DNA of 64,000 bases from an uncultured Candidatus Bathyarchaeia archaeon (GTDB lineage Archaea; Thermoproteota; Bathyarchaeia; TCS64), in NCBI GenBank assembly GCA_964587735.1, contig CAZPMB010000001.1, positions 15,464 to 79,463 of the forward strand, given 5' to 3'. The translations under genes were made by a program, and so were the position numbers. Of this stretch, positions 2,714-57,889 are shown piece by piece. The notes below the pieces were generated by a model. That model did not search any database, was not told the origin of the DNA, and worked only from the letters and a program-made list of their open reading frames with translations. Position 1 is the first letter of the stretch; each line of letters starts with the position of its first letter.

Positions 2714-2723
2714 CAGATCCCCC

Positions 2724-5323: not shown

Positions 5324-5330
5324 CGACGTC

Positions 5331-9310: not shown

Positions 9311-9316
9311 GATGGG

Positions 9317-11834: not shown

Positions 11835-11884
11835 GAACGACGAAAAGTGCGTACTATTCCATCCGAACCTTTAAGATACATCAC

Positions 11885-11900
11885 AAGGTTTAAAAATAGA
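11885..11900 (+). promoter_or_regulatory. TATA-box-like element upstream of rpl7ae
   Basis: tttaaaaata lies ~40 bp upstream of the ATG at 11939. Confidence 0.3.
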
Positions 11901-11938
11901 TGTCTGGTTAAAGGGTATGCACACCAGAAGGAAATGAT

Positions 11939-12331: not shown

Positions 12332-12332
12332 G

Positions 12333-12545
12333 ATGTCCAGAGAGTCCGAGGTCCTGACCCCGGCGACCGTTATCCAGATCCTGGAGAGGACTGGGCTCAC
12401 CGGGGAGGTCATGCAGGTCAGGGTCAGGATCGAGGACGGGCCGGACAAGGGACGAATCATCACGAGGAACGTGAAGGGCCCCGTCAGGATCGACGACATC
12501 CTCCTCCTGAGGGAGACTGAGAGGGAAGCAAGGAAGATCAGGTAG
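12333..12545 (+). CDS. rps28e: Ribosomal protein S28e
   Basis: 70 aa: [48 protein letters not shown]. Confidence 0.9.
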
Positions 12546-12553
12546 GGAAATCG

Positions 12554-12736
12554 ATGCCCCAGGTATACAAGTGCAGCTTCTGCGGCTATGACATCCCGCC
12601 GGGTACGGGCATCAACTACATCAGGCGGGACGGTAGGGTCCTCAGGTTCTGCTCGAGCAAATGTAGGAAGAACGCCCTCAAGCTGAAAAGGGACCCGAGA
12701 AAGTTCAAGTGGACAAAGGCCTACGTCAAGCGCTGA
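12554..12736 (+). CDS. rpl24e: Ribosomal protein L24e
   Basis: 60 aa: [40 protein letters not shown]. Confidence 0.9.
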
Positions 12737-12784
12737 GACCCAATCCTTAAATCAGATACGACGATATCTCTTGGAGGCTTCCGA

Positions 12785-40159: not shown

Positions 40160-41380
40160 ATGGAAAATGTGTCAGTCGATCTGCAAATACACCAAATAGC
40201 AGTCCTTGAAGAGATACTAGAGAATATAAACATCACGGCTTTAGAGGACAGGTGGGGGCCGGAGAAGGTCATCAGGGTTTACGACTCTGACATAGGAATG
40301 GAGGGCATCCTATGCATCGACAACACCGCACTGGGACCAGGTAAGGGTGGCATGAGAATTCGAGCCGGTGTCACCCCTGTGGAGGTGTTCAATCTCGCCC
40401 GTACGATGACCTGGAAGTGTGCATTGGCCGATCTCCCATTTGGTGGGGCCAAGGGGGGGATAAACGCTGACCCGTACACAATCGACAAGATAAAGTACAT
40501 GAAGTCCTTCGCCAGGTCAATCGCCGTGTTCTGCCCAAATCAGTGGGTCTCGGCGCCGGACATGAACGTGGGCGAGAAAGAGATAGAAGCCTTCGTCGAG
40601 GAGATCGGCGACCTAAAGGCAGCCACCGGAAAGCCGGAGAAACTTGGGGGCATCCCTCATGAACTCGGCACGACCGGGTTCGGCGTCGGCGTCTCCATCG
40701 AAACAGCCCTAGAGGTCCTTTCTCAGGTTGTCCCCATAAAGGATTCACTCGCAGGCCTGAAGGTAGCGATACAGGGATTTGGCAACGTAGGATCTGAGCT
40801 CGCAAAGTACCTTGCAAACAACGGCGCGAAGATCGTAGGCGTTAGCGACTACTGGGCAGCGGTCTATAACAGCGACGGGATAGACATCTCAAAGCTGCTG
40901 AAGCACTCCTACGCAACCGATGAAGCTCATTCTGTCAAGTATTGCAAGGGGGCGACTGAAATCCCGAGGGACGACCTTCTCTACGTCGATTGCGACATCC
41001 TTGTTCCCGCCGCCATCTCTAAGGTAATCACGGCCCAAAACGCGAGCCGGATCAAGGCAAAACTAGTTGTTGAGGCGGCGAACATACCGACAACTCCGGA
41101 AGCCGAGGAGATACTATTCAAACGAGGCGTCCTTGTGATGCCCGACATGCTTGTAAACGCCGGAGGAGTAATTGGCTCGTATGTGGAGTACCTTGGAAAG
41201 AGCGCAGATGAGGCGTTCTCCATGATAGAATCAAAGATCGGTAAGAACACCAAGGAAGTGCTCGAAACCGCGATAAACAGCGGGAATATAACACTGCCGA
41301 GGGCAATAGCGATGAAGATCGCGATGGACCGCGTCTCCAGAGCCATGCGCCAACGCAGTGGCTCTAAGGTCTTTGATTGA
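40160..41380 (+). CDS. gdhA: Glu/Leu/Phe/Val-family amino-acid dehydrogenase (glutamate dehydrogenase-like)
   Basis: Catalytic Lys/Gly motif LPFGGAKGGI and NAD(P) Rossmann GFGNVGSELAKYL. Confidence 0.8.
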   Translation: MENVSVDLQIHQIAVLEEILENINITALEDRWGPEKVIRVYDSDIGMEGILCIDNTALGPGKGGMRIRAGVTPVEVFNLARTMTWKCALADLPFGGAKGGINADPYTIDKIKYMKSFARSIAVFCPNQWVSAPDMNVGEKEIEAFVEEIGDLKAATGKPEKLGGIPHELGTTGFGVGVSIETALEVLSQVVPIKDSLAGLKVAIQGFGNVGSELAKYLANNGAKIVGVSDYWAAVYNSDGIDISKLLKHSYATDEAHSVKYCKGATEIPRDDLLYVDCDILVPAAISKVITAQNASRIKAKLVVEAANIPTTPEAEEILFKRGVLVMPDMLVNAGGVIGSYVEYLGKSADEAFSMIESKIGKNTKEVLETAINSGNITLPRAIAMKIAMDRVSRAMRQRSGSKVFD

Positions 41381-41682: not shown

Positions 41683-41819
41683 GGTGTTCTCCCTCAATCA
41701 ACGGCGACGGCCGAATGGGCATCACTAACTTTTTTATAGACACAGTTTGGTTCGTTATAGAGGTCTGACGAATAGATGAATCGGTTTTATCCACAAATCG
41801 GTGAAGATAATTGAACGCG

Positions 41820-42842
41820 ATGTTATTGGAAAAGGTTAGGATCCCCTGGGCGGTGGCAAACCTGTCAAAGGAATACAAGGTCTTCGGCCCTGTCACCCGG
41901 AGATCTTATGTGTCGTTCCAAGAAATACCCAATGGAGAAGGGCTCAATCTCGAATATACTACTACCACATTGCCCCCTAAGAAGCTCTTCCACCACGCTG
42001 AGACATTATTACATTACCATAAAGAAGATTTCTCTGCCCCAAAGTTAGAATCAGATCAACATGTCCTGCTGTTTGGCGTACACCCATGCGACCTCAATGC
42101 CATCCAAAGGATGGACAAGTTCTTCTCGAAGGACTACATTGACTCATACTATTGTAGACGACGGGAAAGGTCGGCAATAGTTGCCCTCAACTGTGGAGTA
42201 CCAGATGACAAGTGCTTCTGCGCCTCCCTAGGAACTGGCCCCGACGTAAAAGAGGGGTTCGACCTACTCTTGACGGATCTAGGAGAGGCTTACCTTGTGG
42301 AGGTTGGGACCTCAAAGGGCAAAACCATGGTCGCAAAGCTAGGACTCAAGAACGCCTCTCAGACCCATTTCCACGAGAAGGCAAGGCGACTTAGAGAGGC
42401 AAGTAAAAAGTTTAAAAAACAAATCCGGATGGAGGGACTGGCAAAACAAGCAGCCGAGAATCCTAACCACGAGGCCTGGGCACTCATTGGCGACAGAGGA
42501 GGTCTCGCCGGCTGTTTCGCGTGTCTGTCCTGCGGTAACTGCAGCATGGTCTGTCCAACGTGCTACTGCTACGAGGTCGCAGAAATCCCCGATGTCTCAC
42601 TGAAAGAGGGGATCAGGAAAAGGGAGCTCGACTCTTGCCAGCTCCTAGAGTATGCCCTGGTGGCCCTCGGCCAGAACTTCAGGCCTGATAGGAGGTACCG
42701 TACACGCCATTGGATGACTTGTAAATTCGGTGGTGCTGGCGGACAGCAGAACACGAGCTGTGTGGGATGTGGCAGGTGCATCAGGTCTTGTCCCTCCCAC
42801 ATCGACCTGACCGAGGTGGCAAGGAGCCTCTGGGGGGAGTGA
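41820..42842 (+). CDS. hydB: Group 3b NiFe hydrogenase beta subunit (sulfhydrogenase HydB / AsrA-like Fe-S subunit)
   Basis: Two [4Fe-4S] motifs CLSCGNCSMVCPTCYC and CVGCGRCIRSCP. First gene of the four-gene hyd operon. Confidence 0.75.
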   Translation: MLLEKVRIPWAVANLSKEYKVFGPVTRRSYVSFQEIPNGEGLNLEYTTTTLPPKKLFHHAETLLHYHKEDFSAPKLESDQHVLLFGVHPCDLNAIQRMDKFFSKDYIDSYYCRRRERSAIVALNCGVPDDKCFCASLGTGPDVKEGFDLLLTDLGEAYLVEVGTSKGKTMVAKLGLKNASQTHFHEKARRLREASKKFKKQIRMEGLAKQAAENPNHEAWALIGDRGGLAGCFACLSCGNCSMVCPTCYCYEVAEIPDVSLKEGIRKRELDSCQLLEYALVALGQNFRPDRRYRTRHWMTCKFGGAGGQQNTSCVGCGRCIRSCPSHIDLTEVARSLWGE

Positions 42843-42843
42843 T

Positions 42844-43689
42844 ATGGAGAATCCGTTGATGCCGAGGAAGGCTATCATCAAGAAGATCGAGATAGAGACC
42901 TACGACTCCAAGACTTACACGTTCGAGTTCGAAGACGGAGGCCCGAAGGGATTGGATTTCAACCCCGGTCAGTTCGTTATGTTATCCATATTAGGGTATG
43001 GAGAGGCTGCAATATCCATAGCCCATGACCCCGATGACAAGTCAGGGCTCGACCTGACGATTAGGAACGTTGGGAGCGTTACTGACGCCCTGTCCCGCAT
43101 GAAGGTCGGGGATCTGGTCGGCATAAGGGGGCCTTACGGCAACGGCTGGCCAATAGATGACGCTGTAGGAAAACGAATACTATTGATCAGCGGTGGTTGC
43201 GGATGCGGCACCATCACGCCCATCATCCTGGCTCACAGGAACGACCAGTCTAGGTTCAAGTTCGTGGAGGTCCTCCATGGCGCGAGGACCCCCAACGACA
43301 TCATCTACAGGAAACACTACGAGGAGATCTGGCCTAAAATCCCTAACTGCAACGTGCTGCTATCATCCGACACGGTGCCACCGGGACAGACGTGGAAACA
43401 CAAGGTCGGCTTCGTCTTATCGCTGTTAAAGGATATGAAGTCCACACCTGAGGACACACTGGCCTTCATGTGCGGGCCAGAGGTCATGATGAAGTTCACC
43501 GCCCTCGACATGTTGAAAATGGGATTCTCCGAGGACCAGATCTACTGCTCCATGGAGAGGAGGATGAGGTGCGGCTTAGGGCTCTGCGGCCACTGCCAGC
43601 TTGGTTCAAAATACGTCTGCAAGGATGGACCGGTCTTTTCATATGCGGAGCTGCAGGAGCTCCCGGATCACATTATAAGGGGGAGCTGA
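42844..43689 (+). CDS. hydG: Group 3b NiFe hydrogenase gamma subunit (FAD/NAD(P)-binding, [2Fe-2S])
   Basis: FNR-like fold (FNPGQFVMLS...GGCGCGTITP) and C-terminal CSMERRMRCGLGLCGHCQ cluster motif. Confidence 0.8.
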   Translation: MENPLMPRKAIIKKIEIETYDSKTYTFEFEDGGPKGLDFNPGQFVMLSILGYGEAAISIAHDPDDKSGLDLTIRNVGSVTDALSRMKVGDLVGIRGPYGNGWPIDDAVGKRILLISGGCGCGTITPIILAHRNDQSRFKFVEVLHGARTPNDIIYRKHYEEIWPKIPNCNVLLSSDTVPPGQTWKHKVGFVLSLLKDMKSTPEDTLAFMCGPEVMMKFTALDMLKMGFSEDQIYCSMERRMRCGLGLCGHCQLGSKYVCKDGPVFSYAELQELPDHIIRGS

Positions 43690-43690
43690 T

Positions 43691-44446
43691 ATGTCGAAGC
43701 TGAAGTGTGGTTTCTTCAAGTTCACGGGCTGCGCGGGCTGCCAGATGGAAGTCCTTAGGGCAGAGGATGTCCTTCCTCAGATGCTAGAGCACGTTGAGAT
43801 AGCTTATTGGCCCATGGTGACCAGCAAGGGCTGGGAGGTGGATCTAGACGTTGCCTTCATAGAGGGCTCTGTCTCGACGCCAAGGGAAATTAGGGAGATC
43901 AAAGAGATCCGTGAGCGAACCAAGGTCTTAGTTGCCTTTGGCGATTGCGCGGTCACGGGCTGCATCCCCTCGATCAGGAACTTCATGACCCAGAGAGAGG
44001 CTGAGAAGGCAGTCTATCTGCATCCTTCTTGGATTGAATCGATCGGATTGAGGGGCATCTATGAGTACGTTGATGTGGAGGTCAGCCTGCCCGGGTGCCC
44101 GCCCCACAGAGACACCATCCTAGAGGTTGTAAAGGGGGCCGCACTCAAAAGGAGGCCCTACCTCAGGCGCCACGCTGTCTGCATCGAGTGCAAGCTAAAG
44201 GACAACGGCTGCCTCCTCACCGAGGAGAAACGACCGTGCATGGGACCTGTGACAAACGCTGGTTGCGGGGCAATCTGTCCAAGCTATAATCGCGAGTGCG
44301 AGGGGTGTTATGGTCCAATGAGCGCCCCAAACGCTGAATCCCTAGCAAAGATCCTTCTGGAGACGGGTATCACAGAGGAGGACGTGAAGAGGAAGTTCCG
44401 GAAGTATGCCGGTTGGACTCCAGATTTCATTAGGGAGGCGATGTAG
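43691..44446 (+). CDS. hydD: NiFe hydrogenase small subunit (group 3, delta)
   Basis: FTGCAGCQMEV...GDCAVTGC...LPGCPP proximal/medial cluster ligands. Confidence 0.85.
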   Translation: MSKLKCGFFKFTGCAGCQMEVLRAEDVLPQMLEHVEIAYWPMVTSKGWEVDLDVAFIEGSVSTPREIREIKEIRERTKVLVAFGDCAVTGCIPSIRNFMTQREAEKAVYLHPSWIESIGLRGIYEYVDVEVSLPGCPPHRDTILEVVKGAALKRRPYLRRHAVCIECKLKDNGCLLTEEKRPCMGPVTNAGCGAICPSYNRECEGCYGPMSAPNAESLAKILLETGITEEDVKRKFRKYAGWTPDFIREAM

Positions 44447-44447
44447 A

Positions 44448-45734
44448 ATGAAAGAGCGCGAGATAAGAGTCGAGTACGTGTCCAGGGTCGAAGGTCAAGG
44501 AGCAGTTGACCTTTTCGTCTCAAAGGATGGGGAGCTCATAGACGCCAAGGTCCGCGTTTATGAGCCCACTCGCTTCTTCGAGGCTCTTATGGTTGGGAGA
44601 AAATACGACGAACTCATGGAGCTTGCAGCTAGGATCTGCGGCATCTGCCCTGTCTCCCACGAGATAACGGCTCTTCGGGCCGTTGAGGAGGCCATTGGCC
44701 TAGAGGTAAGCGAGGCTACCAAGAGACTAAGAAAGCTAATGGCGATGAGCGCCTTCATCAGCAGCCACGTACTCAGCATCTATTTCCTCACCCTACCTGA
44801 TTACTTCGGATATAACGACCTCATCGAGGTGGCGAAGGAGAACCCTGAACTCTTGAAACGGGGCTTTGAACTTAAGAAACTAGGCAATGACCTGACAGAG
44901 CTGATCGGTGGTAGATCCGTCCACCCCGTCACTGCGGTCGTCGGCAGGTTCACCAACGCGATAAAGAAGCGGGATGCTGAAACGATGAGGAAGCGCTTTA
45001 TCGAGGCTAAAAGTGATGCTCTGGAGACTGTTGACCTCTTCAAGGGGCTGGAGATACCGAAGTTCACGAGGAAATGCGAGCATATGGCAATCAGCAGTCC
45101 CGAGGAATATGCCATCAACGAGGGAATGCTCGCCTCCACGGAAGGGATCAAAGTTCCTCAGAGGGAGTACCGACAGTTTGTCGAGGAAAACCAGGTACAA
45201 CACTCGAACGCCAAGCACTCAAACGTGAAGGGTCGAACATCCTATCTCGTTGGGCCACTCGCAAGGGTCAACATCAACTTAGATCAGCTGTCCCCGGATG
45301 CGAGAAGAGCGGCTAAGAGCGTGGGGCTTAATGTCCCGAACTACAGCCCATTCAAATCGCCTATCGCCAGGGCTGTAGAGGTCGTCCACTGCATCGACGA
45401 ATGCGCAGAGATCCTTGAAACCATGCCATATAGCGAGGAGCCCAGCCTGATCAAGTTGAGGGCAGGTGACGGCTATGCCATCACGGAGGCGCCTAGGGGC
45501 ATCAATTACCACCATTATTCACTGAATAGGGGTGGCATCGTAACAAAGGCGGACATTGCGCCACCAACCTGCCAGAACTACAGGAACATGGAGATGGACC
45601 TCATAGAGCTCGTTCCCACCATCCTAGACCTACAGGACGATGAGATCGCTCACAGGTGCCAGATGCTCATACGGGCGTACGACCCCTGCATCTCATGCTC
45701 GGTCCACTCCATTAAGATTCACAAGGTAAAATAA
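44448..45734 (+). CDS. hydA: NiFe hydrogenase large subunit (group 3b, alpha)
   Basis: N-terminal RICGICPVSH (RxCGxCxxxH) and C-terminal DPCISCSVH (DPCxxCxxH) Ni-Fe ligands. ATG at 44448 is 1 nt after the hydD stop. Confidence 0.9.
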   Translation: MKEREIRVEYVSRVEGQGAVDLFVSKDGELIDAKVRVYEPTRFFEALMVGRKYDELMELAARICGICPVSHEITALRAVEEAIGLEVSEATKRLRKLMAMSAFISSHVLSIYFLTLPDYFGYNDLIEVAKENPELLKRGFELKKLGNDLTELIGGRSVHPVTAVVGRFTNAIKKRDAETMRKRFIEAKSDALETVDLFKGLEIPKFTRKCEHMAISSPEEYAINEGMLASTEGIKVPQREYRQFVEENQVQHSNAKHSNVKGRTSYLVGPLARVNINLDQLSPDARRAAKSVGLNVPNYSPFKSPIARAVEVVHCIDECAEILETMPYSEEPSLIKLRAGDGYAITEAPRGINYHHYSLNRGGIVTKADIAPPTCQNYRNMEMDLIELVPTILDLQDDEIAHRCQMLIRAYDPCISCSVHSIKIHKVK

Positions 45735-46378: not shown

Positions 46379-49084
46379 TTAAGAAACTCTTACTGTCTTC
46401 TCCACCCGAACTGCACACACCTTGAACTCGGGTATCTTAGATACGGGGTCAAGCGCAGCATTGGTTAACAGGTTGGCGGCGGCCTCCGAGAAATGGAACG
46501 GTATGAAGATTGAGCCCTCTGGTGAGCGCTCCGTAATATTGGCCTTAGCCACAATCACGCCCCTTCTAGACTCGACCCTTACCTCTTCCCCGTCCTCCAC
46601 GCCTAAACGCTTCGCGTCGTTAGGGTTAATCTCAACCAAGCACTCCGGGATTAAAGTGTCAAGGACCTCGGACCTTCTGGTCATTGTCCCTGTGTGAAAG
46701 TGCTGGAGCAGTCTCCCTGTCGTGAGCAAGAGGGGGTAATCTTCGTCGGGGTACTCCGCCGGTGAGATATACTCAACGGCGTGAAAACGCCCCTTCCCGC
46801 GGGCGAACTGATCCCTGTACATGAACGCCGTTCCAGGGTGATTCATGTTAAGGCAAGGCCATTGAAGGCCACTAGTCTCGAGCCTGTGGTGGTGAACCCC
46901 TCCGTATATAGGAGTCAAAGCTGCGATTTCATCCATTATATCAGATGAGGAGCCATAACTCATCTTGTAGCCCATCCGGCCAGCGAGTTTACAGACGATC
47001 TCCCAGTCGGGTAAGCTTGTGCCTATGGGCTCTATTGCCTTCCTGACGATCTGAATGCGACGTGCCGTATTCGTGAATGTCCCGCCTTTCTCTGCGAATG
47101 ATGTGGCTGGCAGCACGACATCAGCTATCTGTGCAGTCTCTGAAAGGAAGATGTCTTGGACAACGAGGAACTCCAGTTTACCGAGCGCCTCCCTGACATG
47201 GTTCAGATCGGGGTCGCTCATCAAAGGGTTCTCCCCTATCACATAGAGCCCCTTCAGGCCGCCATTGTAAGCAGCATTGATCATCTCCACAACGGTAAGG
47301 CCTGGCTCACCGCTGAGGGAAACACCCCAAGCCTCCTCAAACTTGATCCTTGTAGCCTCGTTGTCAATCGACTGATAACCAGGATATATGTTAGGGAGCG
47401 CGCCCATGTCACAGGCTCCCTGAACGTTGTTCTGCCCTCGCAGCGGGTTGACCCCTGTAGACTCCCGGCCCACATTCCCCGTGAGCATGGCGAGGTTCGC
47501 CATCGAAAGCACGTTGTCCGTACCCGTTATGTGCTGCGTGATGCCCATGCTGAAGACTATGGAGGCCTTTTCAGCGCCTCCGAAGAGGATCGCCGCCTCC
47601 TTGATCGCATCCTCGGGTACCCCAGTGATCTCCTCGACTAGGTCTGGCGTGTATCTCTCAACCGTTCTTTTGAATTCCTCGAAGTTCTCGCAACGACTTC
47701 GTATAAACTCCTCGTCGTGCAGGCCTTCATCAATGATGACATTCATCAGGCCGTTCAAAAGTGCTACATCAGTGCCGCCCCTCTGCCTCAGCCAAATAGT
47801 GGAGTGGTCGACGAGGTCTATCTTCCGGGGATCTGCGACGATAAGCTTCGCTCCCCTCTCGATGATGGCCTGTTTTATGTACATGGCGATGACCGGGTGG
47901 TTCTCGGTGGTATTGGAGCCTGTGACGAAGATGACATCTGCGCCCAGCAGTTCCCTGATGGAGTTCGTCATGGCGCCTGAACCGAAGGCCTTCGACAACC
48001 CGGCGACCGTGGGCGCGTGACAGAGCCTGGCGCAGTGGTCTACGTTATTATTGCCAAAACACATACGCACAAATTTCTGAAAGATGTAGTTATCCTCGTT
48101 AGTACACTTGGCCGATGCGAGGCCCGCAAGAGCGCTGTTGCCATATACTCTTTTCAGTTCCTGGAATTTTGAGGCGACCAGATCCAATGCCTCATCCCAT
48201 GTGGCTGGCTCGAGCTTGCCTTCTCTTTTTATCAGAGGGGTAGTAAGCCGGTCCTGGGAGTTAACCCAGTCGTAGCCGAAACGTCCCTTGACGCATAGGC
48301 TCCCCCTATTCTCCACACCGCCTTCTGCGCCCCTCACCTTGACTATCCGCCCGTCTTTGACATACAGCTCCACAGTGCAGCCCACGCCGCAGTAAGGGCA
48401 AGTGGTATCCACTCGCTTCAGCTCCCACCACCTCCCCATGAATCTAGACTGCTTCTCTATCAAGGCGCCAGTGGGGCACACCTGCAGGCACTCTCCGCAG
48501 TAGGTGCAGTCTGTATTGATTAGCGGCTGGCTCATACCGGACGCGATCCGGACATCGCTCCCGCGCTCCACGAAACCCAGGATATGCTCAACCCTCTCAT
48601 CTTGGCAGGCAGAAACACACCTGCCACAGAGAATGCATTTACTGGGGTCGCGTATGATAGCCGGGCTTGAACTGTCAGCAGGATCATTGGGTTCAACGAT
48701 CTCGAAGCTCAGACTGTCCATATCGATCTCCATATCGTATGCTAGGTCCTGGAGATCGCAGTTACCGTTGCTCTCACACGTGAGGCAGTGGATCTTGTGC
48801 CTCGTGAGAAGCAGTTCCACCACCATCTTGCGGGCCTGTCTGACCCTTTCGCTGTCGGTACGAACGATCATGCCTTTCCTGATGGGTGTAGCGCACGATG
48901 CCTCCAATCGCGGGGCTCCCTCTATCTCGACGACGCAGACGCGGCAGGCCCCCGTTATAGGAAGTCGGGGGTGGTGGCAGAGTGTTGGGATGTGTACGCC
49001 ATTCTCCTTGGCAGCCTCAAGTATGGTCTGACCGGACTTACCTGAGACCCTTCTCCCGTCGATTGTCAATTCAATTTCGCTCAT
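46379..49084 (-). CDS. fdhA: Formate dehydrogenase catalytic subunit, FdsA-type (NuoG-like [2Fe-2S]/[4Fe-4S] N-terminus + Mo/W-bisPGD domain), Cys-type
   Basis: N-terminal 2Fe-2S ferredoxin (CHHPRLPITGACRVC), CTYCGECLQVC / CPYCGVGC, and active-site VDHCARLCHAPTVAGL (Cys codon, not TGA). The ATG at 49084 has a GGTGG Shine-Dalgarno. Confidence 0.9.
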   Translation of the reverse strand: MSEIELTIDGRRVSGKSGQTILEAAKENGVHIPTLCHHPRLPITGACRVCVVEIEGAPRLEASCATPIRKGMIVRTDSERVRQARKMVVELLLTRHKIHCLTCESNGNCDLQDLAYDMEIDMDSLSFEIVEPNDPADSSSPAIIRDPSKCILCGRCVSACQDERVEHILGFVERGSDVRIASGMSQPLINTDCTYCGECLQVCPTGALIEKQSRFMGRWWELKRVDTTCPYCGVGCTVELYVKDGRIVKVRGAEGGVENRGSLCVKGRFGYDWVNSQDRLTTPLIKREGKLEPATWDEALDLVASKFQELKRVYGNSALAGLASAKCTNEDNYIFQKFVRMCFGNNNVDHCARLCHAPTVAGLSKAFGSGAMTNSIRELLGADVIFVTGSNTTENHPVIAMYIKQAIIERGAKLIVADPRKIDLVDHSTIWLRQRGGTDVALLNGLMNVIIDEGLHDEEFIRSRCENFEEFKRTVERYTPDLVEEITGVPEDAIKEAAILFGGAEKASIVFSMGITQHITGTDNVLSMANLAMLTGNVGRESTGVNPLRGQNNVQGACDMGALPNIYPGYQSIDNEATRIKFEEAWGVSLSGEPGLTVVEMINAAYNGGLKGLYVIGENPLMSDPDLNHVREALGKLEFLVVQDIFLSETAQIADVVLPATSFAEKGGTFTNTARRIQIVRKAIEPIGTSLPDWEIVCKLAGRMGYKMSYGSSSDIMDEIAALTPIYGGVHHHRLETSGLQWPCLNMNHPGTAFMYRDQFARGKGRFHAVEYISPAEYPDEDYPLLLTTGRLLQHFHTGTMTRRSEVLDTLIPECLVEINPNDAKRLGVEDGEEVRVESRRGVIVAKANITERSPEGSIFIPFHFSEAAANLLTNAALDPVSKIPEFKVCAVRVEKTVRVS

Positions 49085-49093
49085 TGAAACCAC

Positions 49094-52000
49094 CTATTCA
49101 TTCAGCTTCCTGTCACAGTGGAGGCACCTTTTCGCCTCCTCGATGACGTCATTCAGGTTATAACCTTGCTCGACCTCCCTGAAGCCCAGGGCCCTCTCCT
49201 CTGGAGGGAGGAGGAGGGCTTCTACTCTTCTCTGCTCAACTATTTCCGCTTCTAAATCGAATGGAATTTCGTCGATCCTTGCCTGTTTCCTAGCCACCTC
49301 GACCAGCTTCCCGTTACCGCCCAAGAACTTGTCGATGGCCAAAGCAGCCTTTATTCCATCGGCTATTGCCTCGATAACCGTCGCAGGTCCCCTAACAACA
49401 TCTCCTCCGGCGAAGACGCCCGCCTTACTGGTCTCCATGGTGTCCTCGTCCACGATGAGGGTTCCTAATCTGGTCGTAGAGATCTCTCCCTCGCCGGTAA
49501 AGAAGGAGAGATCAGTAGTCTGACCAACTGCGACAATGACCGAGTCGACGTCCACCGTAAACTCTTGACCTTCGACAGGCACGGGCCTTCTTCGACCGCT
49601 GCTGTCAAATTCACCTGGCCTGAGCTGAGAGCACAACATCTGTGCTACTTTCCCACCTTCACCTAGGATTTTCGTCGGCACGGCCATGAATCTGAACCTG
49701 ACGCCTTCATTCTCAGCCTCGGTGACCTCCTCGTCGGTAGCTGTCATGTCCTCCCTCTCTCTTCGATAGTACACGGTGACTTCTTTTCCCCCGAGCCGAA
49801 TCGCCGACCTGGCGGAATCGATGGCAGTGCTGCCTCCACCGATGACTGCAACTTTTTCGCCAAGCTCGACCTTCTTCCCGAGGTTGATATCCATCAAGAA
49901 CCGCACACCCTCGTGGACTCCCTCAAGGCCTTCGCCCTGAATCCCAAGAGCCCTGCCACTCTGTGCACCTACGGCCAGATAGACAACCTTGAACCCCTGT
50001 CCAAAAAGGTCGTTGAAAGTGAAGTCCTCCCCCAGACGCTGGTTTGTCTTGATCTCGACATCAAGTTCGCGTATGGCATCGATCTCGGCATTTAGGATGT
50101 TCTTGGGAAGCCGATAATTGGGTATGCAAACGGCCATCATTCCCCCGGCCACCGGCAACGCCTCGAAGACAGTGGCTTCGTAGCCCATCATGGCCAGGTG
50201 GTAGGCGGCAGTCAGCCCAGATGGTCCCGAGCCCACGACGGCCACCTTCACACCCCTCGTACTCCTTTGATAGAGCTTCGGAGCGGCACTCACGTAGTCC
50301 GAGACGAATCTCTTGAGCAGCCGCAGGGCTACTGGGTCATCGGTTTCACCTCGCCTGCACTTGAACTCGCATGGGTGGTTGCAGATGCGTCCACAGACAG
50401 AGGGGAAGGGGTTCCTCTCCCTGATCAGCGATAGGGCCTCCCCGAACCGGCCCTCTGAGATCAGAGCCACGTACCCATGGGTATCCAGGCCTGCGGGGCA
50501 GGCGTTCTGGCAGGGGGAATCGAACAGGGCTTCGCAGACCCCTGCAGGGCACTTCTTGTACTTAATGTGGGCCTCGTACTCGTCCCTGAAGTACCTGATG
50601 GTGGAAAGGACCGGGTTAGGGCCCGTGCGCCCCAGGCCACAGAGAGCTGTGTCGACTATGATATGAGCCAATTCCTCGAGATGCTCGATGTCTCCCTCCC
50701 TCCCCTCACCCGTCACAATCCTCTCCAAGATATCCAGCATTCTCTGGAAGCCCTCTCGACAAGGGGTGCACTTCCCACAGGACTCGCTCAGGCAGAACTC
50801 TAGGAAGTACCGGGCGATGTCGACCATGCAGGTGTCCTCATCCATGACAACAAGACCACCAGAGCCCATAATAGCCCCTAGTTGGTCCAGTGTCTCGTAA
50901 TCCGCAGGAACGCTAAGCTGTTCCTTCGGTATACAGCCCCCCGAAGGGCCTCCGCTCTGTACCGCCTTGAACCTCTTTCCTCCCTTGCATCCCCCGCCGA
51001 TGTCGTAGATGATCTTACCCATCTCCGTCCCGATGGGCACCTCGATCAATCCGGTGTTATTTATATCGCCGACAAGAGAGTAAACCTTCGTCCCTGCGCT
51101 CCGTTCTGTCCCTATTATTCTATACGCTTCTGCTCCTTTCCGAATGATCAACGGAACGTTTGCTAGGGTCTCCACGTTGTTCAGAGCGGTCGGCTTACCC
51201 CAAAGCCCCTTCTCGGATGGGAAAGGCGGTCTCGGTCTCGGGACTGCCCTCTTACCCTCAATTGAGGCAAGCAGAGCGGTCTCCTCTCCACAGACGAAGG
51301 CGCCTGCCCCCATCCTCATTTCGATGTCGAAATCGAATCCTGATCTAAAGATGTCTTTTCCAAGCAAGCCACATTCCCTCGCCCGCTCGATGGCCAGCTT
51401 TAACCTGCTAACAGCGAGGGGATACTCCGCTCTGATGTACACATATCCTTTGTTGGCGCCTATGGCGTAGCCTGCGATTGCCATACCCTCGATGACGCTG
51501 TGCGGGTCACCCTCTATGAGGCTCCTATTCATGAAAGCCCCCGGATCGCCCTCATCACAATTAGCCACTATGTATTTGGTATTCCCGCCAGCTATTCGCG
51601 TCAGGTGCCATTTGAAGCCGGTTGGGAAACCTGCGCCACCACGTCCCCTGAGCAGCGCAGCCCTAACCTCTTTAATGACATCCTCAGGCGTCATCGAGGT
51701 AAGAACCCTTGACAACGCCTGGTAACCATCTTTTTTAATGTATTCCTCTATCCTCGTCGGATCTATGTTGCCGCAGTTTCTAAGGATGTTTTTTGTCTGG
51801 TGTTTGAAGAAGGGGATATCGTCCATTGTTGTAAATGCATCTTTACTTACAGGGTCTACGTAGAGAAGGCGCCCAACAACCTCCTTATTGACTATCGTCT
51901 TTGAGACAATTTCAGGGACATCATCCGGTTTCACGTGAAAATAGCAGAATCCTTGGGGGTAGATCGTGACCCTCGGCCCATTTTCGCAGAAACCAGCGCA

Positions 52001-52204
52001 TCCTGTCTCCTTGATTCCCGAGACTAGCATGTTTAAACCCCGTTCCTCAAGCTCCTCTCTAAGTGTGGCAACGATTTTATCGGCGCCTTGAGACAGGCAG
52101 CCCGTTCCCAAACACACGGCGATGAACGGTTCGTTGGGATCGCTCTGGGCAATTATTTCCTTTCTGAGTCTTTCTAGATCAGAGGGCGAGTTTAAGTGAT
52201 CCAA
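49094..52204 (-). CDS. FDH beta-like subunit: fusion of thioredoxin-like [2Fe-2S] + NuoF-like (FMN/NAD) + 2x[4Fe-4S] + GltD-like FAD/NADPH oxidoreductase (1036 aa)
   Basis: AVCLGTGCLSQGADKI...CAGFCENGP; NuoF FMN motif GRGGAGFPTGFKWH; CDEGDPGAF; then CGRICNHPCEFKCRRG; VAVVGSGPSGLTAAYHL; VAVIGGGSTAIDSARSA. TTG start with a GAGGAAG Shine-Dalgarno. Confidence 0.85.
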   Translation of the reverse strand: MDHLNSPSDLERLRKEIIAQSDPNEPFIAVCLGTGCLSQGADKIVATLREELEERGLNMLVSGIKETGCAGFCENGPRVTIYPQGFCYFHVKPDDVPEIVSKTIVNKEVVGRLLYVDPVSKDAFTTMDDIPFFKHQTKNILRNCGNIDPTRIEEYIKKDGYQALSRVLTSMTPEDVIKEVRAALLRGRGGAGFPTGFKWHLTRIAGGNTKYIVANCDEGDPGAFMNRSLIEGDPHSVIEGMAIAGYAIGANKGYVYIRAEYPLAVSRLKLAIERARECGLLGKDIFRSGFDFDIEMRMGAGAFVCGEETALLASIEGKRAVPRPRPPFPSEKGLWGKPTALNNVETLANVPLIIRKGAEAYRIIGTERSAGTKVYSLVGDINNTGLIEVPIGTEMGKIIYDIGGGCKGGKRFKAVQSGGPSGGCIPKEQLSVPADYETLDQLGAIMGSGGLVVMDEDTCMVDIARYFLEFCLSESCGKCTPCREGFQRMLDILERIVTGEGREGDIEHLEELAHIIVDTALCGLGRTGPNPVLSTIRYFRDEYEAHIKYKKCPAGVCEALFDSPCQNACPAGLDTHGYVALISEGRFGEALSLIRERNPFPSVCGRICNHPCEFKCRRGETDDPVALRLLKRFVSDYVSAAPKLYQRSTRGVKVAVVGSGPSGLTAAYHLAMMGYEATVFEALPVAGGMMAVCIPNYRLPKNILNAEIDAIRELDVEIKTNQRLGEDFTFNDLFGQGFKVVYLAVGAQSGRALGIQGEGLEGVHEGVRFLMDINLGKKVELGEKVAVIGGGSTAIDSARSAIRLGGKEVTVYYRREREDMTATDEEVTEAENEGVRFRFMAVPTKILGEGGKVAQMLCSQLRPGEFDSSGRRRPVPVEGQEFTVDVDSVIVAVGQTTDLSFFTGEGEISTTRLGTLIVDEDTMETSKAGVFAGGDVVRGPATVIEAIADGIKAALAIDKFLGGNGKLVEVARKQARIDEIPFDLEAEIVEQRRVEALLLPPEERALGFREVEQGYNLNDVIEEAKRCLHCDRKLNE

Positions 52205-52220
52205 TGATCATCTTCCTCGG

Positions 52221-52697
52221 CTAGCTGTATCTGGATAGTATCTCAGGAATTTTGGTAACGGTTACATGGCTGTACAGGTCCTTGTCAAGCCTGACGACAG
52301 GCGCTAGGGCGCATGCCCCCATGCAACGGATGGATTCGAGTGAAAACCTCATGTCTTCTGTCGTCTCCCCTTCCTCGATCTGCAATATATCCTTTACATG
52401 CATCATTATCCTCTTGCCCCCTCGGACGTAGCACGATGTACCCAGACACACGCTGATAGAATGCCTGCCCTTGGGCACCATAGTAAAGAGATTGTAAAAG
52501 GTCACAACCCCGTATACTCTTGTGAGGGGCACGTTGAGCACCTTCGCAATCTCAGCTTGTACATCCTTGGGAAGATAACCAAAAACCTCTTGAGTCTGAT
52601 GTAAAACCTCGATAAGGGACTCCGGTTTACCCCTGTGTTTGGCAATAATATCTTTTAGTTTCGCTGCATTTTCCTCATTAGCCAGTATCGATTCCAT
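52221..52697 (-). CDS. NuoE/HoxE/FdsG-like thioredoxin-fold [2Fe-2S] ferredoxin subunit
   Basis: 158 aa with CLGTSCYVRGG...CMGACALAPVV. First gene of the fds-like operon. Confidence 0.8.
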   Translation of the reverse strand: MESILANEENAAKLKDIIAKHRGKPESLIEVLHQTQEVFGYLPKDVQAEIAKVLNVPLTRVYGVVTFYNLFTMVPKGRHSISVCLGTSCYVRGGKRIMMHVKDILQIEEGETTEDMRFSLESIRCMGACALAPVVRLDKDLYSHVTVTKIPEILSRYS

Positions 52698-55201: not shown

Positions 55202-55972
55202 TCATTCTAACCTAATCCTTCCTAAGGCCACACCGACGGCGGTCTCGGCTAATATCTGTAGGGGATCAATGACTGGTACAGCCAAATCCCCGTCCTTGAG
55301 CACGAGGGAAACCTCCGTGCAGCCGCATATCACCGCCTTCGCACCACGGCTAACGAGGTTTTTCGCCACCTTCAGAACTATCCTCCTCCCTCCCTCTGGA
55401 TCCCCTGCCTTTATGTGCTCGTAGATGGCTTCCATGGACGCCTTTTGAAGGTCCTCTTGAGGGACGATTATCTCAATCCCTTGTTCGTGGAATACCCCAT
55501 CATAGATGCCGCTCTGAACTGTTCCAACTGTGGCGATGAGACCAGCGCACTTCAACCCAGGGAGTTCTCTACTAACCTTTTTCGCGGTTAACTCGATCAT
55601 GTGGAGTATCGGTATACCGACGTTATCTCTCAGCTCCCCGATGAAGTGGTGTGCCGTGTTGCATGGGATTATTATGAAGTCTGCACCCGCGGTCTCAAGA
55701 GCCCTCGCCGCCTTCACCATCTCCGGCAGGGGATTTGGTCCATCTCCGAGTACAGCAGGCGTCCTGTCCGGAACTTTTGAATTGCTATATATGATCGTCC
55801 TGGGGTGGTCCTGATCTCTCTTTACTTTGGTGGCTTTGATGATTCTGTAAAACAGGTCGGCTGTGGCCTCTGGCCCCATACCACCAAGGATACCAATGAT
55901 CTTTTCTTCAGCCCTTTCCTCATCGGAATCTATATGGTTTGATAAGTGGTTCTTCAAATTCCTTTTCCTCAT
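55202..55972 (-). CDS. Aspartate/glutamate racemase family protein
   Basis: IGILGGMGPEATADLF...IIIPCNTAHHF...ICGCTEVSLV (two catalytic Cys regions). A ~24-aa N-terminal extension means the start is uncertain. Confidence 0.75.
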   Translation of the reverse strand: MRKRNLKNHLSNHIDSDEERAEEKIIGILGGMGPEATADLFYRIIKATKVKRDQDHPRTIIYSNSKVPDRTPAVLGDGPNPLPEMVKAARALETAGADFIIIPCNTAHHFIGELRDNVGIPILHMIELTAKKVSRELPGLKCAGLIATVGTVQSGIYDGVFHEQGIEIIVPQEDLQKASMEAIYEHIKAGDPEGGRRIVLKVAKNLVSRGAKAVICGCTEVSLVLKDGDLAVPVIDPLQILAETAVGVALGRIRLE

Positions 55973-56004: not shown

Positions 56005-57435
56005 CTATTCGTATGCTCTCGAAAATCTATTTCCTTGAACCACTTTCGTATGTTTATCTTTTTTGAATGGGTCTTTCCCCGTGATGCAGTATGTGCAAAG
56101 TTTACCTTCTGGAAGCCCAATGGCCCTGATGACGTTTTCAGGTGAGTTATACCTCACCTTGTTTATCGATGGTAAGTTTGAGGCAACCAGATCGCCGATC
56201 TCGGGGAGGCTATGACCTTCGTAGGGTGCTGCCGCAAGGACCTTGTCTGGCGGGTCTGAGAAACATGAGTGGATGATTGGAGCGTAGCTGACGAGGTAAT
56301 CCACACCCTTTGCCCCAGCTTTGATTAGGTTCTTGGCGACGGATTCGCTCACGGTTCCACGGACGATGCTATCATCTGTTATGATGACCCTTCTTTCCTT
56401 AATAGTCTCTCTTATTATGTTATGCTTTAGGTCCGAGGCTATCTTCCTGTACTCTGGATCGTCGATGATGTACGTCCTCCCTAGGTAGGCGTTTTTTATG
56501 ACGCCCTCGTCTGCTGTGACGCCAAGCGCCTCAGCGACGCCGACACAGACGGAACGGCCAGAATCTGGGATAGGGATCACTACCAAATTATCAACGGGTT
56601 CGTAGAGGTTGCTATAGAATTTCTTGAGCGAATGGGTCTCAACAAGTGCATGGCCAAGCCTCTTTCTAACGGAGTGGACGTTCCTCCCCTCAATGACTGA
56701 GTCAGGCCTGCCAAAATAGACCCACTCGAAAGCGCAATGAGCGTACTTTGGCTCTATGAGTTGTAACTCCATCAGTCCATTTTCGTTCCTCCTGATCAAA
56801 GAACCGGGAATTACATCCCTCCTCTTGTCGATTTTCTGACCCATGGTCTCTGTAACGTCGATTGGAGCAGATTCCGAGGTTATAAAGAGCTCTTCGTCGT
56901 TCGACCCGAGATATAATGGCCTGATGCCTCTCTTATCCCTCGTTGCGATGAGTTCGCTCCTTTCATTGTCCTTGTCAAGCAAGGCCATCACCATCGAAAA
57001 ATACGTATTGGGTAACTCCAACATCGTCTCAGCAATTGCCGCATCGATCTCAGCACCGGCATCCATTTTCTTCAGGATCAAGCTTCCCAAGACCTCCTCG
57101 TTGAGCCCCGACACACGCTCTTGCACATGCCCGTCCAAAGCAATGGCGATTTTGAAGCGTTCTGATTCCAGTTCTAAAGGAGGAAGCCTGCCCTTGTTGG
57201 CGTTCTCGCCAGAAGCGCATCCAATCGCGACGTAGTCGTTCGGGTGCATGAAGGATTTGAATTGATCCCTGAAGACGTTCGAGACGAGGCCTTCACCCTT
57301 CCATGTCCTGATGGAATGGTCGCCGGCAGCCGACATGCCAGAGCTCTCCTGACCCCTGTGCTGGACGCCATAGAGTACGTTGAGGGCCTTCTGGATCGCG
57401 TTGTCCTTGGAGTATACGCCGACTACACCCTGCAT
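56005..57435 (-). CDS. purF: Amidophosphoribosyltransferase homologue (PurF family) whose N-terminal nucleophile Cys is replaced by Gln
   Basis: MQGVVGVYS...LYGVQHRGQESSGM (canonical PurF is MCGIVGI...HRGQESAGI); PRTase motifs IPIPDSGR, ITDDSIVRGTVS, HSCF. GGTGG Shine-Dalgarno before the ATG at 57435. Confidence 0.8.
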   Translation of the reverse strand: MQGVVGVYSKDNAIQKALNVLYGVQHRGQESSGMSAAGDHSIRTWKGEGLVSNVFRDQFKSFMHPNDYVAIGCASGENANKGRLPPLELESERFKIAIALDGHVQERVSGLNEEVLGSLILKKMDAGAEIDAAIAETMLELPNTYFSMVMALLDKDNERSELIATRDKRGIRPLYLGSNDEELFITSESAPIDVTETMGQKIDKRRDVIPGSLIRRNENGLMELQLIEPKYAHCAFEWVYFGRPDSVIEGRNVHSVRKRLGHALVETHSLKKFYSNLYEPVDNLVVIPIPDSGRSVCVGVAEALGVTADEGVIKNAYLGRTYIIDDPEYRKIASDLKHNIIRETIKERRVIITDDSIVRGTVSESVAKNLIKAGAKGVDYLVSYAPIIHSCFSDPPDKVLAAAPYEGHSLPEIGDLVASNLPSINKVRYNSPENVIRAIGLPEGKLCTYCITGKDPFKKDKHTKVVQGNRFSRAYE

Positions 57436-57889
57436 ATTCCACCATTGGAAAACCTTAGGATAAAAAATCAACGACCAACTAGTGACTGTGACGTTGTCAG
57501 ATTTATAGAACCATAGCAATTTTTCGCGCCAGCAGGCTTCTATCCTATAACCCATTTACAATTTTTTTTAGGAGCTTTGTCCCCATTGACCCAACAAGAA
57601 CTCGCTTCATAACTCTATGGATGACTATGGTCATATCTGCATCGACCTCAACCATCATCTGATTCGACTGACAACGCCGTTGGATTGTTGTGAGAACTAA
57701 CAGAGAATAGAATTAGTTGCCTTGGCCTCGCCAGTGTCGCACTAAACCGAGCTTGAAATGAATAGAATGAAACCTGAGAGGGGAAAAGAAGACATAACTC
57801 TTTTTAGCTCTCACTAAGTTATAGTTTCTATGTCCAATAAAGCTATAATTGAATTTTACTATATGAAATAAAGGTAAAATGGCAGGATA

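Follow-up and report, generated by a model that had tools for sequence, protein, structure and literature searches.

The committed step in making purines de novo is catalyzed by PurF, a textbook Ntn amidotransferase with an ammonia channel. Class-II (Ntn) amidotransferases carry a mature N-terminal cysteine, the free α-amine of which serves as the general base. In contrast, a PurF homolog encoded in the 64,000-nucleotide stretch of an uncultured Candidatus Bathyarchaeia archaeon analyzed here (hereinafter the window) starts with Met-Gln. This raises the question of whether a PurF that has lost its glutaminase nucleophile still makes phosphoribosylamine and, if so, where its nitrogen comes from. 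An earlier sequence-only reading of the window had drawn attention to the N-terminus MQGVVGVYS...HRGQESSGM, which occurs together with the phosphoribosyltransferase (PRTase) motifs IPIPDSG and ITDDSIVRGT (residues 352–361), and had argued that the CAG codon could not stem from a single-base error. All of these motifs are present as described, and the passage from TGY to CAG takes three base changes. Alignment pairs Gly3 of the query with Gly2 of the Bacillus subtilis PurF chain, thereby placing Gln2 of this full-length homolog at the position of Cys1.

The same reading had named two ways in which the observation might dissolve, namely a different upstream start producing a Cys-containing N-terminus and an assembly error at the start. 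Neither holds. The in-frame extension 5′ of the ATG reaches 57555 and contains a single cysteine, 33 residues upstream, which is not followed by a G-[VI]-x-G motif; hence, there is no Cys-Gly junction that might represent an alternative start or the end of a propeptide. Most homologs begin directly at M-[QK]-G, which fixes the start at 57435. A JGI metagenome contig and a Logan assembly of run SRR8539650 match the DNA of the start region exactly, so that the same sequence is present in three assemblies, and the loss of the cysteine is family-wide (see below). Scans for Rfam families, tRNAs, promoters and terminators upstream of the gene returned nothing informative. The features of the locus are collected in Table 1.

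Table 1. Features of the purF-like gene and its surroundings, in window coordinates
Feature	Position	Strand	Basis
PurF-Q gene, Cys-less PurF-like protein of 476 aa	56005..57435	minus	ORF; profile match; full-length alignment; AF2 model
Start ATG (57435..57433) and CAG for Gln2 (57432..57430), the Cys1-homologous position	57430..57435	minus	
GGTGG, Shine-Dalgarno-like element 3 nt 5′ of the ATG (putative)	57439..57443	minus	Sequence reading; function inferred
A/T-rich box TTTTTTATCC upstream of the PurF-Q gene (putative)	57458..57467	minus	Sequence reading; function inferred
Ntn-fold N-terminal domain (former glutaminase), residues 1 to ~230	56746..57435	minus	Alignment; AF2 model
HRGQES motif, residues 26–31 (canonical Arg26/Gly27 kept)	57343..57360	minus	
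Asp101-Gly102 (GAC GGG) in place of the canonical oxyanion-hole Asn-Gly	57130..57135	minus	
Type I phosphoribosyltransferase domain, residues ~231–460	56056..56745	minus	Alignment; conservation; AF2 model
IPIPDSG, residues 287–293, PPi-binding loop of the PRTase domain	56557..56577	minus	
KNAYLGRTY, residues 314–322, PurF-specific flexible catalytic loop	56470..56496	minus	
DDSIVRGT, residues 354–361, PRPP-binding loop	56353..56376	minus	
Four 4Fe-4S Cys ligands (B. subtilis type), whole span	56086..56736	minus	Alignment
Putative 4Fe-4S ligands C234; C391; C447; C450	56734–56736; 56263–56265; 56095–56097; 56086–56088	minus	
Asp/Glu racemase family gene, 32 nt 3′ of the PurF-Q gene	55202..55972	minus	PF01177, E 6e-47

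To establish how far the substitution extends, we assembled 125 full-length relatives (37–100% identity) from Bathyarchaeia and allies, hereinafter the PurF-Q family. Not one of them has Cys at the Cys1 position, and neither does any of 120 homologs in the 59–100% identity range; in the 125 sequences, the position is instead occupied by Gln (83 sequences), Lys (29), Glu (5), Leu (2), Ala (2) and others, Ile, Arg and Pro among them. Thus, the Cys1 substitution characterizes the family as a whole, far beyond chance, and is not peculiar to one gene, while the specific exchange of Cys for Gln, for which a survey of orthologs had been proposed, did not prove universal, the residue itself being variable. 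MetAP leaves the initiator Met in place when Gln, Lys or Glu follows. With these residues after Met, PurF-Q should keep its initiator Met and would accordingly have no free N-terminal nucleophile.

The departures from canonical PurF extend beyond Cys1 to the rest of the glutamine site. The oxyanion-hole Asn (Asn102) is Asp in 125/125 PurF-Q sequences, as opposed to its retention in 18/18 canonical Bathyarchaeial PurFs; among 50% representatives, Asp occupies this position in 19 of 23 proteins without the cysteine versus none of 104 with it. At the position of the glutamine-binding Arg72/73, none of three alignments places an Arg in PurF-Q, the equivalent of Asp127 is mostly Asn, and the three alignments disagree as to which residue corresponds to Tyr73/74. 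With the equivalents of Cys1, Arg72/73 and Asn102 gone family-wide and that of Asp127 mostly so, the glutaminase half is predicted to be unable to work, as had been surmised from the single gene. Nevertheless, the N-terminal domain bears the marks of constraint: Arg27, Gly28 and Gln29 of HRGQES are invariant (125/125), and conservation is also seen at Gly3, across His26-Arg27-Gly28-Gln29-Glu30-Ser31, at Asp101-Gly102 and at Ser187-Glu188-Ser189. The ratio of N- to C-domain identity is 0.74 in PurF-Q as compared to 0.77 in canonical PurF, by which measure normal purifying selection continues to act on the N-domain, which is not decaying; relaxed selection on it was rejected on this ground.

On the PRTase side, the catalytic loops are invariant or nearly so across the 125 sequences, and this half indeed appears intact. 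Lys314, Asn315, Tyr317, Arg320 and Thr321 of the flexible loop are found in 125/125, Pro290, Asp291 and Ser292 of the PPi loop in 124/125, and Asp354, Asp355, Ser356, Arg359, Gly360 and Thr361 of the PRPP loop are invariant or nearly so. C234, C391, C447 and C450 align with B. subtilis Cys236, Cys382, Cys437 and Cys440 and are likewise present in 125/125. PurF-Q hence shares with canonical PurF (EC 2.4.2.14) of the B. subtilis 4Fe-4S class the two-domain architecture, the sequences DDSIVRGT, PDS, KNxYxGRT[FY]I and HRGQE, the four Fe-S cysteines and the fold: the AF2 model of the window protein (pLDDT 89.5) superposes on PurF structures from B. subtilis, E. coli and Arabidopsis with a TM of about 0.8 (0.78–0.81), and its alignment with B. 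subtilis PurF (1gph/1ao0; E 6e-46) covers the full length of the protein. The identity to canonical PurF is only 28–31%, and the PRTase side departs from it at Arg307 (Ala), Thr353 (Val) and Ser244 (Gly); family-specific invariant residues are Asp101, Ala316, Val362 and Tyr68. Against the TIGR01134 purF model, the window protein scores 208.9 bits, below the equivalog cutoff of 350, which is why members of the family are named 'hypothetical protein' at NCBI; four proteins scored alongside it (P0046, P0122, P0131 and P0133) reach 172–252 bits, as compared to 487.5 for a canonical Bathyarchaeial PurF.

We posit, with a confidence that leans modestly toward this reading, that PurF-Q is a glutaminase-dead, ammonia-dependent phosphoribosylamine synthase. 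The Ntn glutaminase active site has been dismantled, with the PRPP-binding and transfer machinery and the Fe-S site fully preserved, and the first purine step would most likely be kept as PRPP + NH3 → 5-phosphoribosylamine + PPi. The PRTase half would be catalytically active with NH3 as the acceptor, and the nitrogen would derive from free ammonia or ammonium and not from glutamine hydrolyzed in cis; its delivery by a separate glutaminase is also conceivable. A mechanistic precedent for this activity may be seen in E. coli PurF, in which replacement of Cys1 is reported to abolish glutamine-dependent activity and to leave NH3-dependent phosphoribosylamine synthesis (Mei & Zalkin 1989, as cited in PMC3261824). 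As described there, these are laboratory point mutants, whereas the change in PurF-Q is natural, ancient and accompanied by further remodeling of the glutamine site. Against this reading stand the PRTase-side departures from canonical PurF noted above and the strongly conserved N-domain: a simple NH3-dependent reaction would have no use for this domain, which must therefore do something further; it may have a structural, regulatory or ammonia-handling role.

The sequence-only reading had left PurF-Q to use free NH3 or to have been repurposed; between these, the gene neighborhoods favor a purine role. In one locus (L020) purC lies immediately 5′ of the PurF-Q gene; in two others (L092 and L017) purC is followed by a small ORF and PurF-Q, with purE about 0.9 kb downstream past one opposite-strand gene. 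P0131, the most divergent member of the family, has purD immediately 3′, purQ is the immediate 5′ neighbor in L086, and the gene of the sister Ser1/Asp group (see below) is found one gene past purL. A further pair of loci (L031 and L093) shows the order purC, a remnant of canonical purF and PurF-Q. The remnant, of 105–109 aa, is 50% identical to residues 390–459 of canonical Bathyarchaeial PurF, and its position beside a kept PurF-Q suggests that in this lineage the canonical gene was lost and PurF-Q was retained. The 64-aa ORF between purC and PurF-Q in L092 and L017 was considered as another such remnant and rejected, having no detectable similarity to that of L031. Against such a role, most of the 80 metagenomic PurF-Q loci have unrelated neighbors (an M24-like peptidase, an RNase-J-like MBL protein or the racemase). 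No pur genes are found in the window or in L002 and L003, nor beside the PurF-Q gene in either complete genome that has one (CP070784.1 and CP070640.1). The absence of a second purF from the window, also claimed earlier, is borne out: tblastn of the 64,000 nucleotides with two canonical PurFs recovered no second PurF-like locus.

Canonical purF is present in some Bathyarchaeia (the canonical group being 488 aa), which also weighs against the proposed function. In a profile search built on 18 canonical Bathyarchaeial PurFs, none of the matches listed (at most 120) lay on the PurF-Q-carrying contigs of 2,302,760, 1,502,086 and 783,396 bp; this is a weak negative, as the known Bathyarchaeial PurF P0140 was also not among the matches listed. 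A search of contigs with one Bathyarchaeial canonical PurF recovered four close relatives only, and the PurF-Q target genomes were not among them.

Cys-less PurF proteins of archaea have been noticed before: PurF′ paralogs of Crenarchaeota were proposed to be ammonia-dependent PRPP aminotransferases (Brown, Hoopes, White & Sarisky 2011, Biol Direct 6:63, PMC3261824). Our literature search returned nothing past that study on purF or purine biosynthesis in Bathyarchaeia or in follow-up of PurF′. We detected tandem purF′ genes in other Bathyarchaeia (L004:11437-12780 and L102:11434-12777). PurF-Q resembles PurF′ in lacking the cysteine, in coming from TACK archaea and in having Asp at the oxyanion-hole position. 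The two differ in several other respects. PurF′ sits immediately 3′ of an intact canonical purF within a pur cluster and PurF-Q does not; position 1 of the tandem PurF′ is Ala, Gly or Val, and its flexible loop is degenerate (VQTGRR[IV]RSAI), whereas the loop of PurF-Q is intact. Tandem PurF′ shares 41% identity with its canonical partner and only 27–28% with PurF-Q, with TIGR01134 scores of 298–338 as against 172–252 bits. In a crude NJ tree, for which the PurF′ compared were the Bathyarchaeial tandem copies rather than crenarchaeal sequences, the two fall in separate parts. By these sequence comparisons, PurF-Q appears to be a clade distinct from the published PurF′, and it has a different genomic setting.

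Certain bacterial PurF-like proteins, among them one from Omnitrophota (MCD6093788.1, P0133) and those of a Tissierellaceae cluster (P0135), also lack Cys1 and have Asp in place of the Asn. The gene of P0133 lies near purL, and in the NJ tree this protein groups as the sister of PurF-Q. Unlike in PurF-Q, position 1 in these proteins is Ser, which would be N-terminal after removal of Met and is in principle a potential nucleophile, and P0135 still scores 480 bits with TIGR01134. Further parallels among class-II amidotransferase homologs are the AsnB-derived β-lactam synthetase, carbapenam synthetase and lasso-peptide cyclases, in which Cys1 is lost, the Ntn domain serves as a scaffold and the synthetase is active. 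These belong to another synthase family and have a C-terminal domain with a new reaction, whereas PurF-Q probably keeps the original one.

An unlikely alternative is that PurF-Q makes no phosphoribosylamine and is a non-catalytic or regulatory paralog, which would form a hetero-oligomer with a canonical PurF encoded elsewhere or act as a purine nucleotide sensor. In its favor, PurF enzymes are homo-oligomers, the N-domain is conserved though catalytically dead, and canonical PurF does exist in Bathyarchaeia, where it may co-occur with PurF-Q and is sometimes paired with a Cys-less tandem PurF′. However, neither the PRPP-binding and PRPP-activating residues nor the PurF-specific flexible loop vary among the 125 PurF-Q proteins, and the tandem PurF′ with its degenerate loop is the better candidate for a non-catalytic partner. 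Moreover, in about 95 loci an intact canonical purF never adjoins PurF-Q, and in one lineage the adjacent canonical gene has been reduced to the remnant described above.

Equally improbable, in our estimate, is a neofunctionalized phosphoribosyltransferase that would use a nucleophile other than ammonia, or an N-domain that binds or processes a new ligand, in a non-purine pathway that may be linked to the racemase. The deep divergence of PurF-Q (both in identity to PurF and in distance from the TIGR01134 cutoff), its family-specific invariant residues and the lack of pur genes in the window would fit such a shift, as would the conserved pairing with the Asp/Glu racemase gene, which lies directly 3′ of PurF-Q in 21 loci of the window's subclade. 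In this subclade only, the racemase gene is possibly co-transcribed with PurF-Q. However, the pairing is absent from other subclades, and the subclade in question also shares wider synteny (TBP, DUF169), so that the association may reflect shared ancestry rather than function; we accordingly did not take the racemase as evidence of a functional partner. Against this alternative, purine genes are the recurrent functionally related neighbors in the more distant lineages, and the loop that closes over PRPP, a PurF-specific element, is retained.

Less probable still is that PurF-Q remains glutamine-dependent via a glutaminase acting in trans, such as PurQ, feeding NH3 to the dead N-domain or the channel. 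This would accord with the purQ gene immediately 5′ of PurF-Q in one locus (L086), with the conservation of the N-domain and HRGQ as though an interface or channel mattered, and with the sister-group Ser1/Asp gene, which is found one gene past purL, between a HisA/HisF-family gene and glmS. However, the purQ adjacency was seen once only, we know of no case in which a class-I glutaminase supplies a synthase of the PurF type, and such an arrangement would be superfluous in ammonium-rich anoxic sediments. Finally, the unusual residue alone speaks for an artifact, be it an error of sequencing or assembly, a start called wrongly or a pseudogene in decay. Its probability is negligible in view of the identical DNA in three assemblies, the 120 homologs at 59–100% identity that all lack Cys, an intact ORF conserved along its full length, the three base changes needed and an upstream in-frame sequence free of a Cys-Gly N-terminus.

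Returning to PurF-Q as an ammonia-dependent synthase, a more far-reaching version of this reading can be formulated, which we advance tentatively as possible and short of probable. Here, PurF-Q would have displaced canonical PurF and would be the sole enzyme to form phosphoribosylamine in most Bathyarchaeia of sediments, with the remnant in L031 and L093 representing a snapshot of this displacement, and the dead pocket would have been rebuilt as an NH4+-capturing site. The Asp at the old oxyanion hole, found in several separate clades, might bind and deprotonate NH4+ at the mouth of the NH3 channel. If this holds, PurF-Q would constitute a natural and widespread class of 'ammonia-only' PurF enzymes, and standard annotation would be wrong in scoring an archaeal class that is abundant worldwide as incomplete for purine synthesis.

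Cys-less archaeal PurF′ was known already; what is new is PurF-Q as a large separate family, and with it the stand-alone PurF-Q can be told apart from the easily conflated tandem PurF′ as one of two Cys-less lineages of archaeal PurF. While JGI names many of its members amidophosphoribosyltransferase, NCBI leaves most of them as 'hypothetical protein', on account of which automated pipelines may call the first purine step missing. A natural glutaminase-less PurF family with both domains under selection would show a reversion to ammonia dependence and would offer a natural experiment on the roles of the N-domain beyond glutamine hydrolysis, including the recurrent change of Asn to Asp. It would also correct metabolic reconstructions of the Bathyarchaeia, which are among the most abundant archaea of anoxic sediments.

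The window gene codes for a PurF homolog in which Gln replaces the catalytic Cys1, as the sequence-only reading had claimed: its second codon is CAG (57432..57430), and in an end-to-end alignment with the B. subtilis PurF (1gph/1ao0; E 6e-46) G3 of the query pairs with G2 of the chain, which places Gln2 at the position of the Ntn nucleophile. The NCBIfam purF profile TIGR01134 matches the protein over its full length but gives only 208.9 bits, where the curated cutoff is 350, and a confident AlphaFold2 model with 27 family members as input (pLDDT 89.5, pTM 0.89) compares with the PurF structures of B. subtilis, Arabidopsis and E. coli at TM 0.78–0.81. The three motifs named earlier are all present in the protein, and tblastn with two canonical (i.e., Cys1) PurFs as queries against the whole 64 kb agrees with the statement that the window has no second purF.

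An upstream start supplying the Cys was rejected: the in-frame ORF reaching to 57555 has one Cys, 33 residues upstream and in a context that is not PurF-like, while the ATG is preceded, at a distance of 3 nt, by a GGTGG element and most homologs begin with M-[QK]-G. A sequencing or assembly error was likewise rejected, as a JGI metagenome contig and a Logan assembly of run SRR8539650 carry exactly the same start-region DNA, and the homologs also lack the Cys. Among the best 120 database clusters listed (59–100% identity, the named ones being Candidatus Bathyarchaeota/Bathyarchaeia) none has Cys at the nucleophile position, and most show the N-terminus M-[QK]-G-[VI]-[VI]-G. The survey of orthologs proposed in the sequence-only reading gave the same picture across the 125 full-length members of this Cys-less family (hereinafter PurF-Q): Cys is absent from position 1 in all 125, with Gln in 83, Lys in 29, Glu in 5, Leu and Ala in 2 each, and Ile, Arg and Pro in 1 each. 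This variation indicates that the nucleophile constraint has been lost. Moreover, given the specificity of methionine aminopeptidase, the initiator Met should stay when the second residue is Gln, Lys or Glu; hence, such proteins would have no free N-terminal residue at the catalytic position.

We compared the 125 members with B. subtilis PurF (whose numbering is used here) and 18 canonical Bathyarchaeial PurFs. The oxyanion-hole Asn102, Arg72 (E. coli Arg73) and Asp127 are conserved in 18/18 of the latter; in PurF-Q the first is Asp in 125/125, the second is not Arg by HMMER, MAFFT-auto or L-INS-i, and the third is mostly Asn or Ser. These alignments differ locally near Arg72/Tyr73, leaving the fate of Tyr73/74 ambiguous. 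Arg26-Gly27-Gln28 is invariant in both families. On the PRTase side, full or near-full invariance extends to P-D-S of the PPi loop, to K305-N306-x-Y308-x-R311-T312-[FY]-I of the flexible loop specific to PurF, to D345-D346-S-I-V-R-G-T of the PRPP loop and to all four Fe–S cysteines; substitutions specific to PurF-Q replace Arg307 by Ala, Thr353 by Val and Ser244 by Gly. As judged from sequence, the entire glutamine site is dismantled with the remainder intact, which supports and extends the earlier prediction of a dead glutaminase half beside an intact PRTase half. A decaying N-domain is ruled out: the mean pairwise identities of the N- and C-domains are 0.535 and 0.719 in PurF-Q (ratio 0.74) versus 0.603 and 0.784 in canonical Bathyarchaeial PurF (ratio 0.77).

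In a homolog search over 1.84 billion representatives at 50% identity, PurF-Q forms a distinct block at 240–582 bits, followed by general PurFs at 200 bits or less. Among full-length representatives, all 104 with Cys1 have Asn102 and none has Asp102, whereas 19 of the 23 without Cys1 carry Asp102 (Fisher p ~5e-19, uncorrected for phylogeny). The joint loss of Cys1 and change of Asn102 to Asp recurs in several distinct groups of archaea and bacteria, often with Ser at position 1. In a crude neighbor-joining tree the Cys-less proteins split into several groups: one unites PurF-Q with a Ser1/Asp sister group including Omnitrophota proteins, and the other Ser1/Asp or Gly1/Asp proteins are scattered and nested among canonical PurFs, including a Tissierellaceae cluster and the archaeal tandem PurF′ (a different Cys-less paralog directly downstream of canonical purF).

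The concept of a Cys-less, possibly ammonia-dependent archaeal PurF paralog is already published: in every crenarchaeon, Brown et al. (2011, PMC3261824) found a canonical purF and, near it in the pur gene cluster, a purF′ whose product has Ala or Val instead of the Cys; they suggested that this product may be an ammonia-dependent enzyme. We find the crenarchaeal-type tandem inside the pur cluster of some Bathyarchaeia, namely purF-purF′-CYTH-purD-purE in GCA_052246995.1 (L004) and purS-purQ-purL-purF-purF′-purD-purT-purE on a 148-kb contig (L102); a further Bathyarchaeial MAG has purS-Q-L-F-E-M with purF′ absent. Our direct sequence comparison covers these two tandem PurF′, the crenarchaeal versions being taken from the published description. 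They are 57% identical to each other, and that of L004 shares 41% identity with its canonical partner, but they show merely 27–28% identity to the window protein. They begin with MGG or MAG and share Asp at the oxyanion position with PurF-Q; however, their flexible loop is degenerate (VQTGRR[IV]RSAI), and they score 338 and 298 bits with TIGR01134 (just below the cutoff), as compared to 172–252 for PurF-Q members and 487.5 for a canonical Bathyarchaeial PurF. Thus, PurF-Q appears to be a second, more divergent Cys-less lineage, differing from the published PurF′ in being independent of canonical purF, in its intact catalytic loop and in its breadth across Bathyarchaeia.

Across distant lineages, the functionally related neighbors of PurF-Q that recur are purine genes. 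Upstream, purC is immediately adjacent in L020, separated by a 64-aa ORF in L092/L017 (where purE follows ~0.9 kb further downstream past one opposite-strand gene) and by an ORF of 105/109 aa in L031 and L093; purQ is immediately upstream in L086. The most divergent member, P0131, has an intein-bearing purD 56 nt downstream, and an Omnitrophota sister protein is encoded one gene after purL. All of these loci lack an intact canonical purF. The purD product, at 769 aa with a Hint-domain match, appears to be an intein-containing GAR synthetase. The 105/109-aa ORF is 50% identical to residues 390–459 of canonical Bathyarchaeial PurF (the C-terminal 70, including the CxxC Fe–S ligands) and nearer to it than to tandem PurF′; itself intact, the ORF overlaps the stop codon of purC, is separated from PurF-Q by 6 nt and looks like the remnant of an otherwise deleted canonical purF.

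No pur genes were found elsewhere in the window. An Asp/Glu racemase family gene follows PurF-Q there, and beyond it lie small ORFs and TBP; upstream, a DsbD-like gene and one for a thioredoxin-like redoxin form a thiol-disulfide pair, accompanied by a DUF169 gene. The racemase pair recurs in two complete Bathyarchaeota genomes and, overall, in 21 loci (29–151 nt downstream, same strand), limited to a subclade of about 62% identity or more that also shares wider synteny; other subclades lack it. In 33 loci of a different subclade, an M24-peptidase/creatinase-like gene (a weak Pfam match, 31.9 bits) directly precedes PurF-Q on the same strand; an RNase-J-like MBL gene lies downstream in 19 loci. 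The window additionally encodes GluRS, a topoisomerase and, after the CODH/ACS cluster, a divergently oriented MetF-like MTHFR with its C-terminal-domain partner (MetF/MetV-like); G+C in this region is ~60% versus ~50% in the remaining window. Its radical SAM protein may be linked to methanopterin-type cofactor methylation, fitting the nearby archaeal Wood–Ljungdahl genes; three adjacent genes resemble an electron-bifurcating formate dehydrogenase module, and the PALP/PadR-like protein is an unusual enzyme–regulator fusion.

Coordinates of PurF-Q and of other features in the window and in homologous loci
Feature	Location	Strand	Remarks
PurF-Q gene	window 56005-57435	-	476 aa; ATG at 57435, stop ending 56005
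HRGQES	residues 26-31		window PurF-Q
IPIPDSG	residues 287-293		window PurF-Q
ITDDSIVRGT	residues 352-361		window PurF-Q
Asp/Glu racemase family gene	window 55202-55972	-	32 nt downstream of PurF-Q
CODH/ACS cluster, archaeal type	window 467-9952		CooC-like ATPase, two CdhD-family genes, CdhC, epsilon subunit, CdhA
Radical SAM protein	window 25279-26886		HMPTM-type N-terminal zinc ribbon (PF23545)
PALP/PadR-like protein	window 27911-29323	-	470 aa; PLP-dependent PALP domain (66-367), C-terminal PadR-like winged helix (399-461)
Glutamate dehydrogenase	window 40160-41380		just upstream of hydrogenase cluster
NiFe hydrogenase-like cluster	window 41811-45734		four genes: 4Fe-4S subunit, ORF 42844-43689, small (Oxidored_q6) and large subunits
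Formate-dehydrogenase-like genes	window 46379-52697	-	NuoE-like 2Fe-2S protein; 1036-aa fusion of NuoF-like (FMN, 4Fe-4S) and GltD-like pyridine-nucleotide-disulfide oxidoreductase modules; 904-aa molybdopterin subunit
purF-purF′ pair	L004:10001-12780		purF′ 11437-12780
purF-purF′ pair	L102:10001-12777		purF′ 11434-12777
ORF between purC and PurF-Q	L031:2947-3276		
ORF between purC and PurF-Q	L093:6413-6730		
purD by P0131	L095:9436-11745		also L096:2779-5088
M24-peptidase/creatinase-like gene	L083:128-1786		

The simplest account, which we place slightly on the probable side, is that PurF-Q would still be a phosphoribosylamine synthase, now devoid of glutamine hydrolysis and dependent on ammonia; this agrees with the invariance of the PRTase machinery, with the links to purine genes and with the purF remnant, as well as with the NH3-dependent activity kept by E. 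coli PurF Cys1 mutants (as cited in PMC3261824). As one speculative explanation for the sustained selection on the N-domain and for the universal Asn-to-Asp change, the new carboxylate might assist in trapping NH4+, or in taking a proton from it, where the former NH3 channel opens. We rate lower the alternative that PurF-Q serves a canonical PurF, encoded elsewhere in the genome, as a non-catalytic or regulatory partner. On PurF-Q contigs of 2.30 Mb, 1.50 Mb and 783 kb no canonical purF is among the 120 matches listed for a profile of canonical Bathyarchaeial PurFs, a weak negative since at least one known Bathyarchaeial PurF is likewise missing from these matches, and a genome-collection scan with a canonical Bathyarchaeial PurF returned close relatives of the query only. 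We also consider a PRTase using a new acceptor, or a glutaminase supplied in trans, less probable than an ammonia-using synthase. These archaea inhabit ammonium-rich anoxic sediments, a setting that would suit the synthesis of phosphoribosylamine without glutamine.
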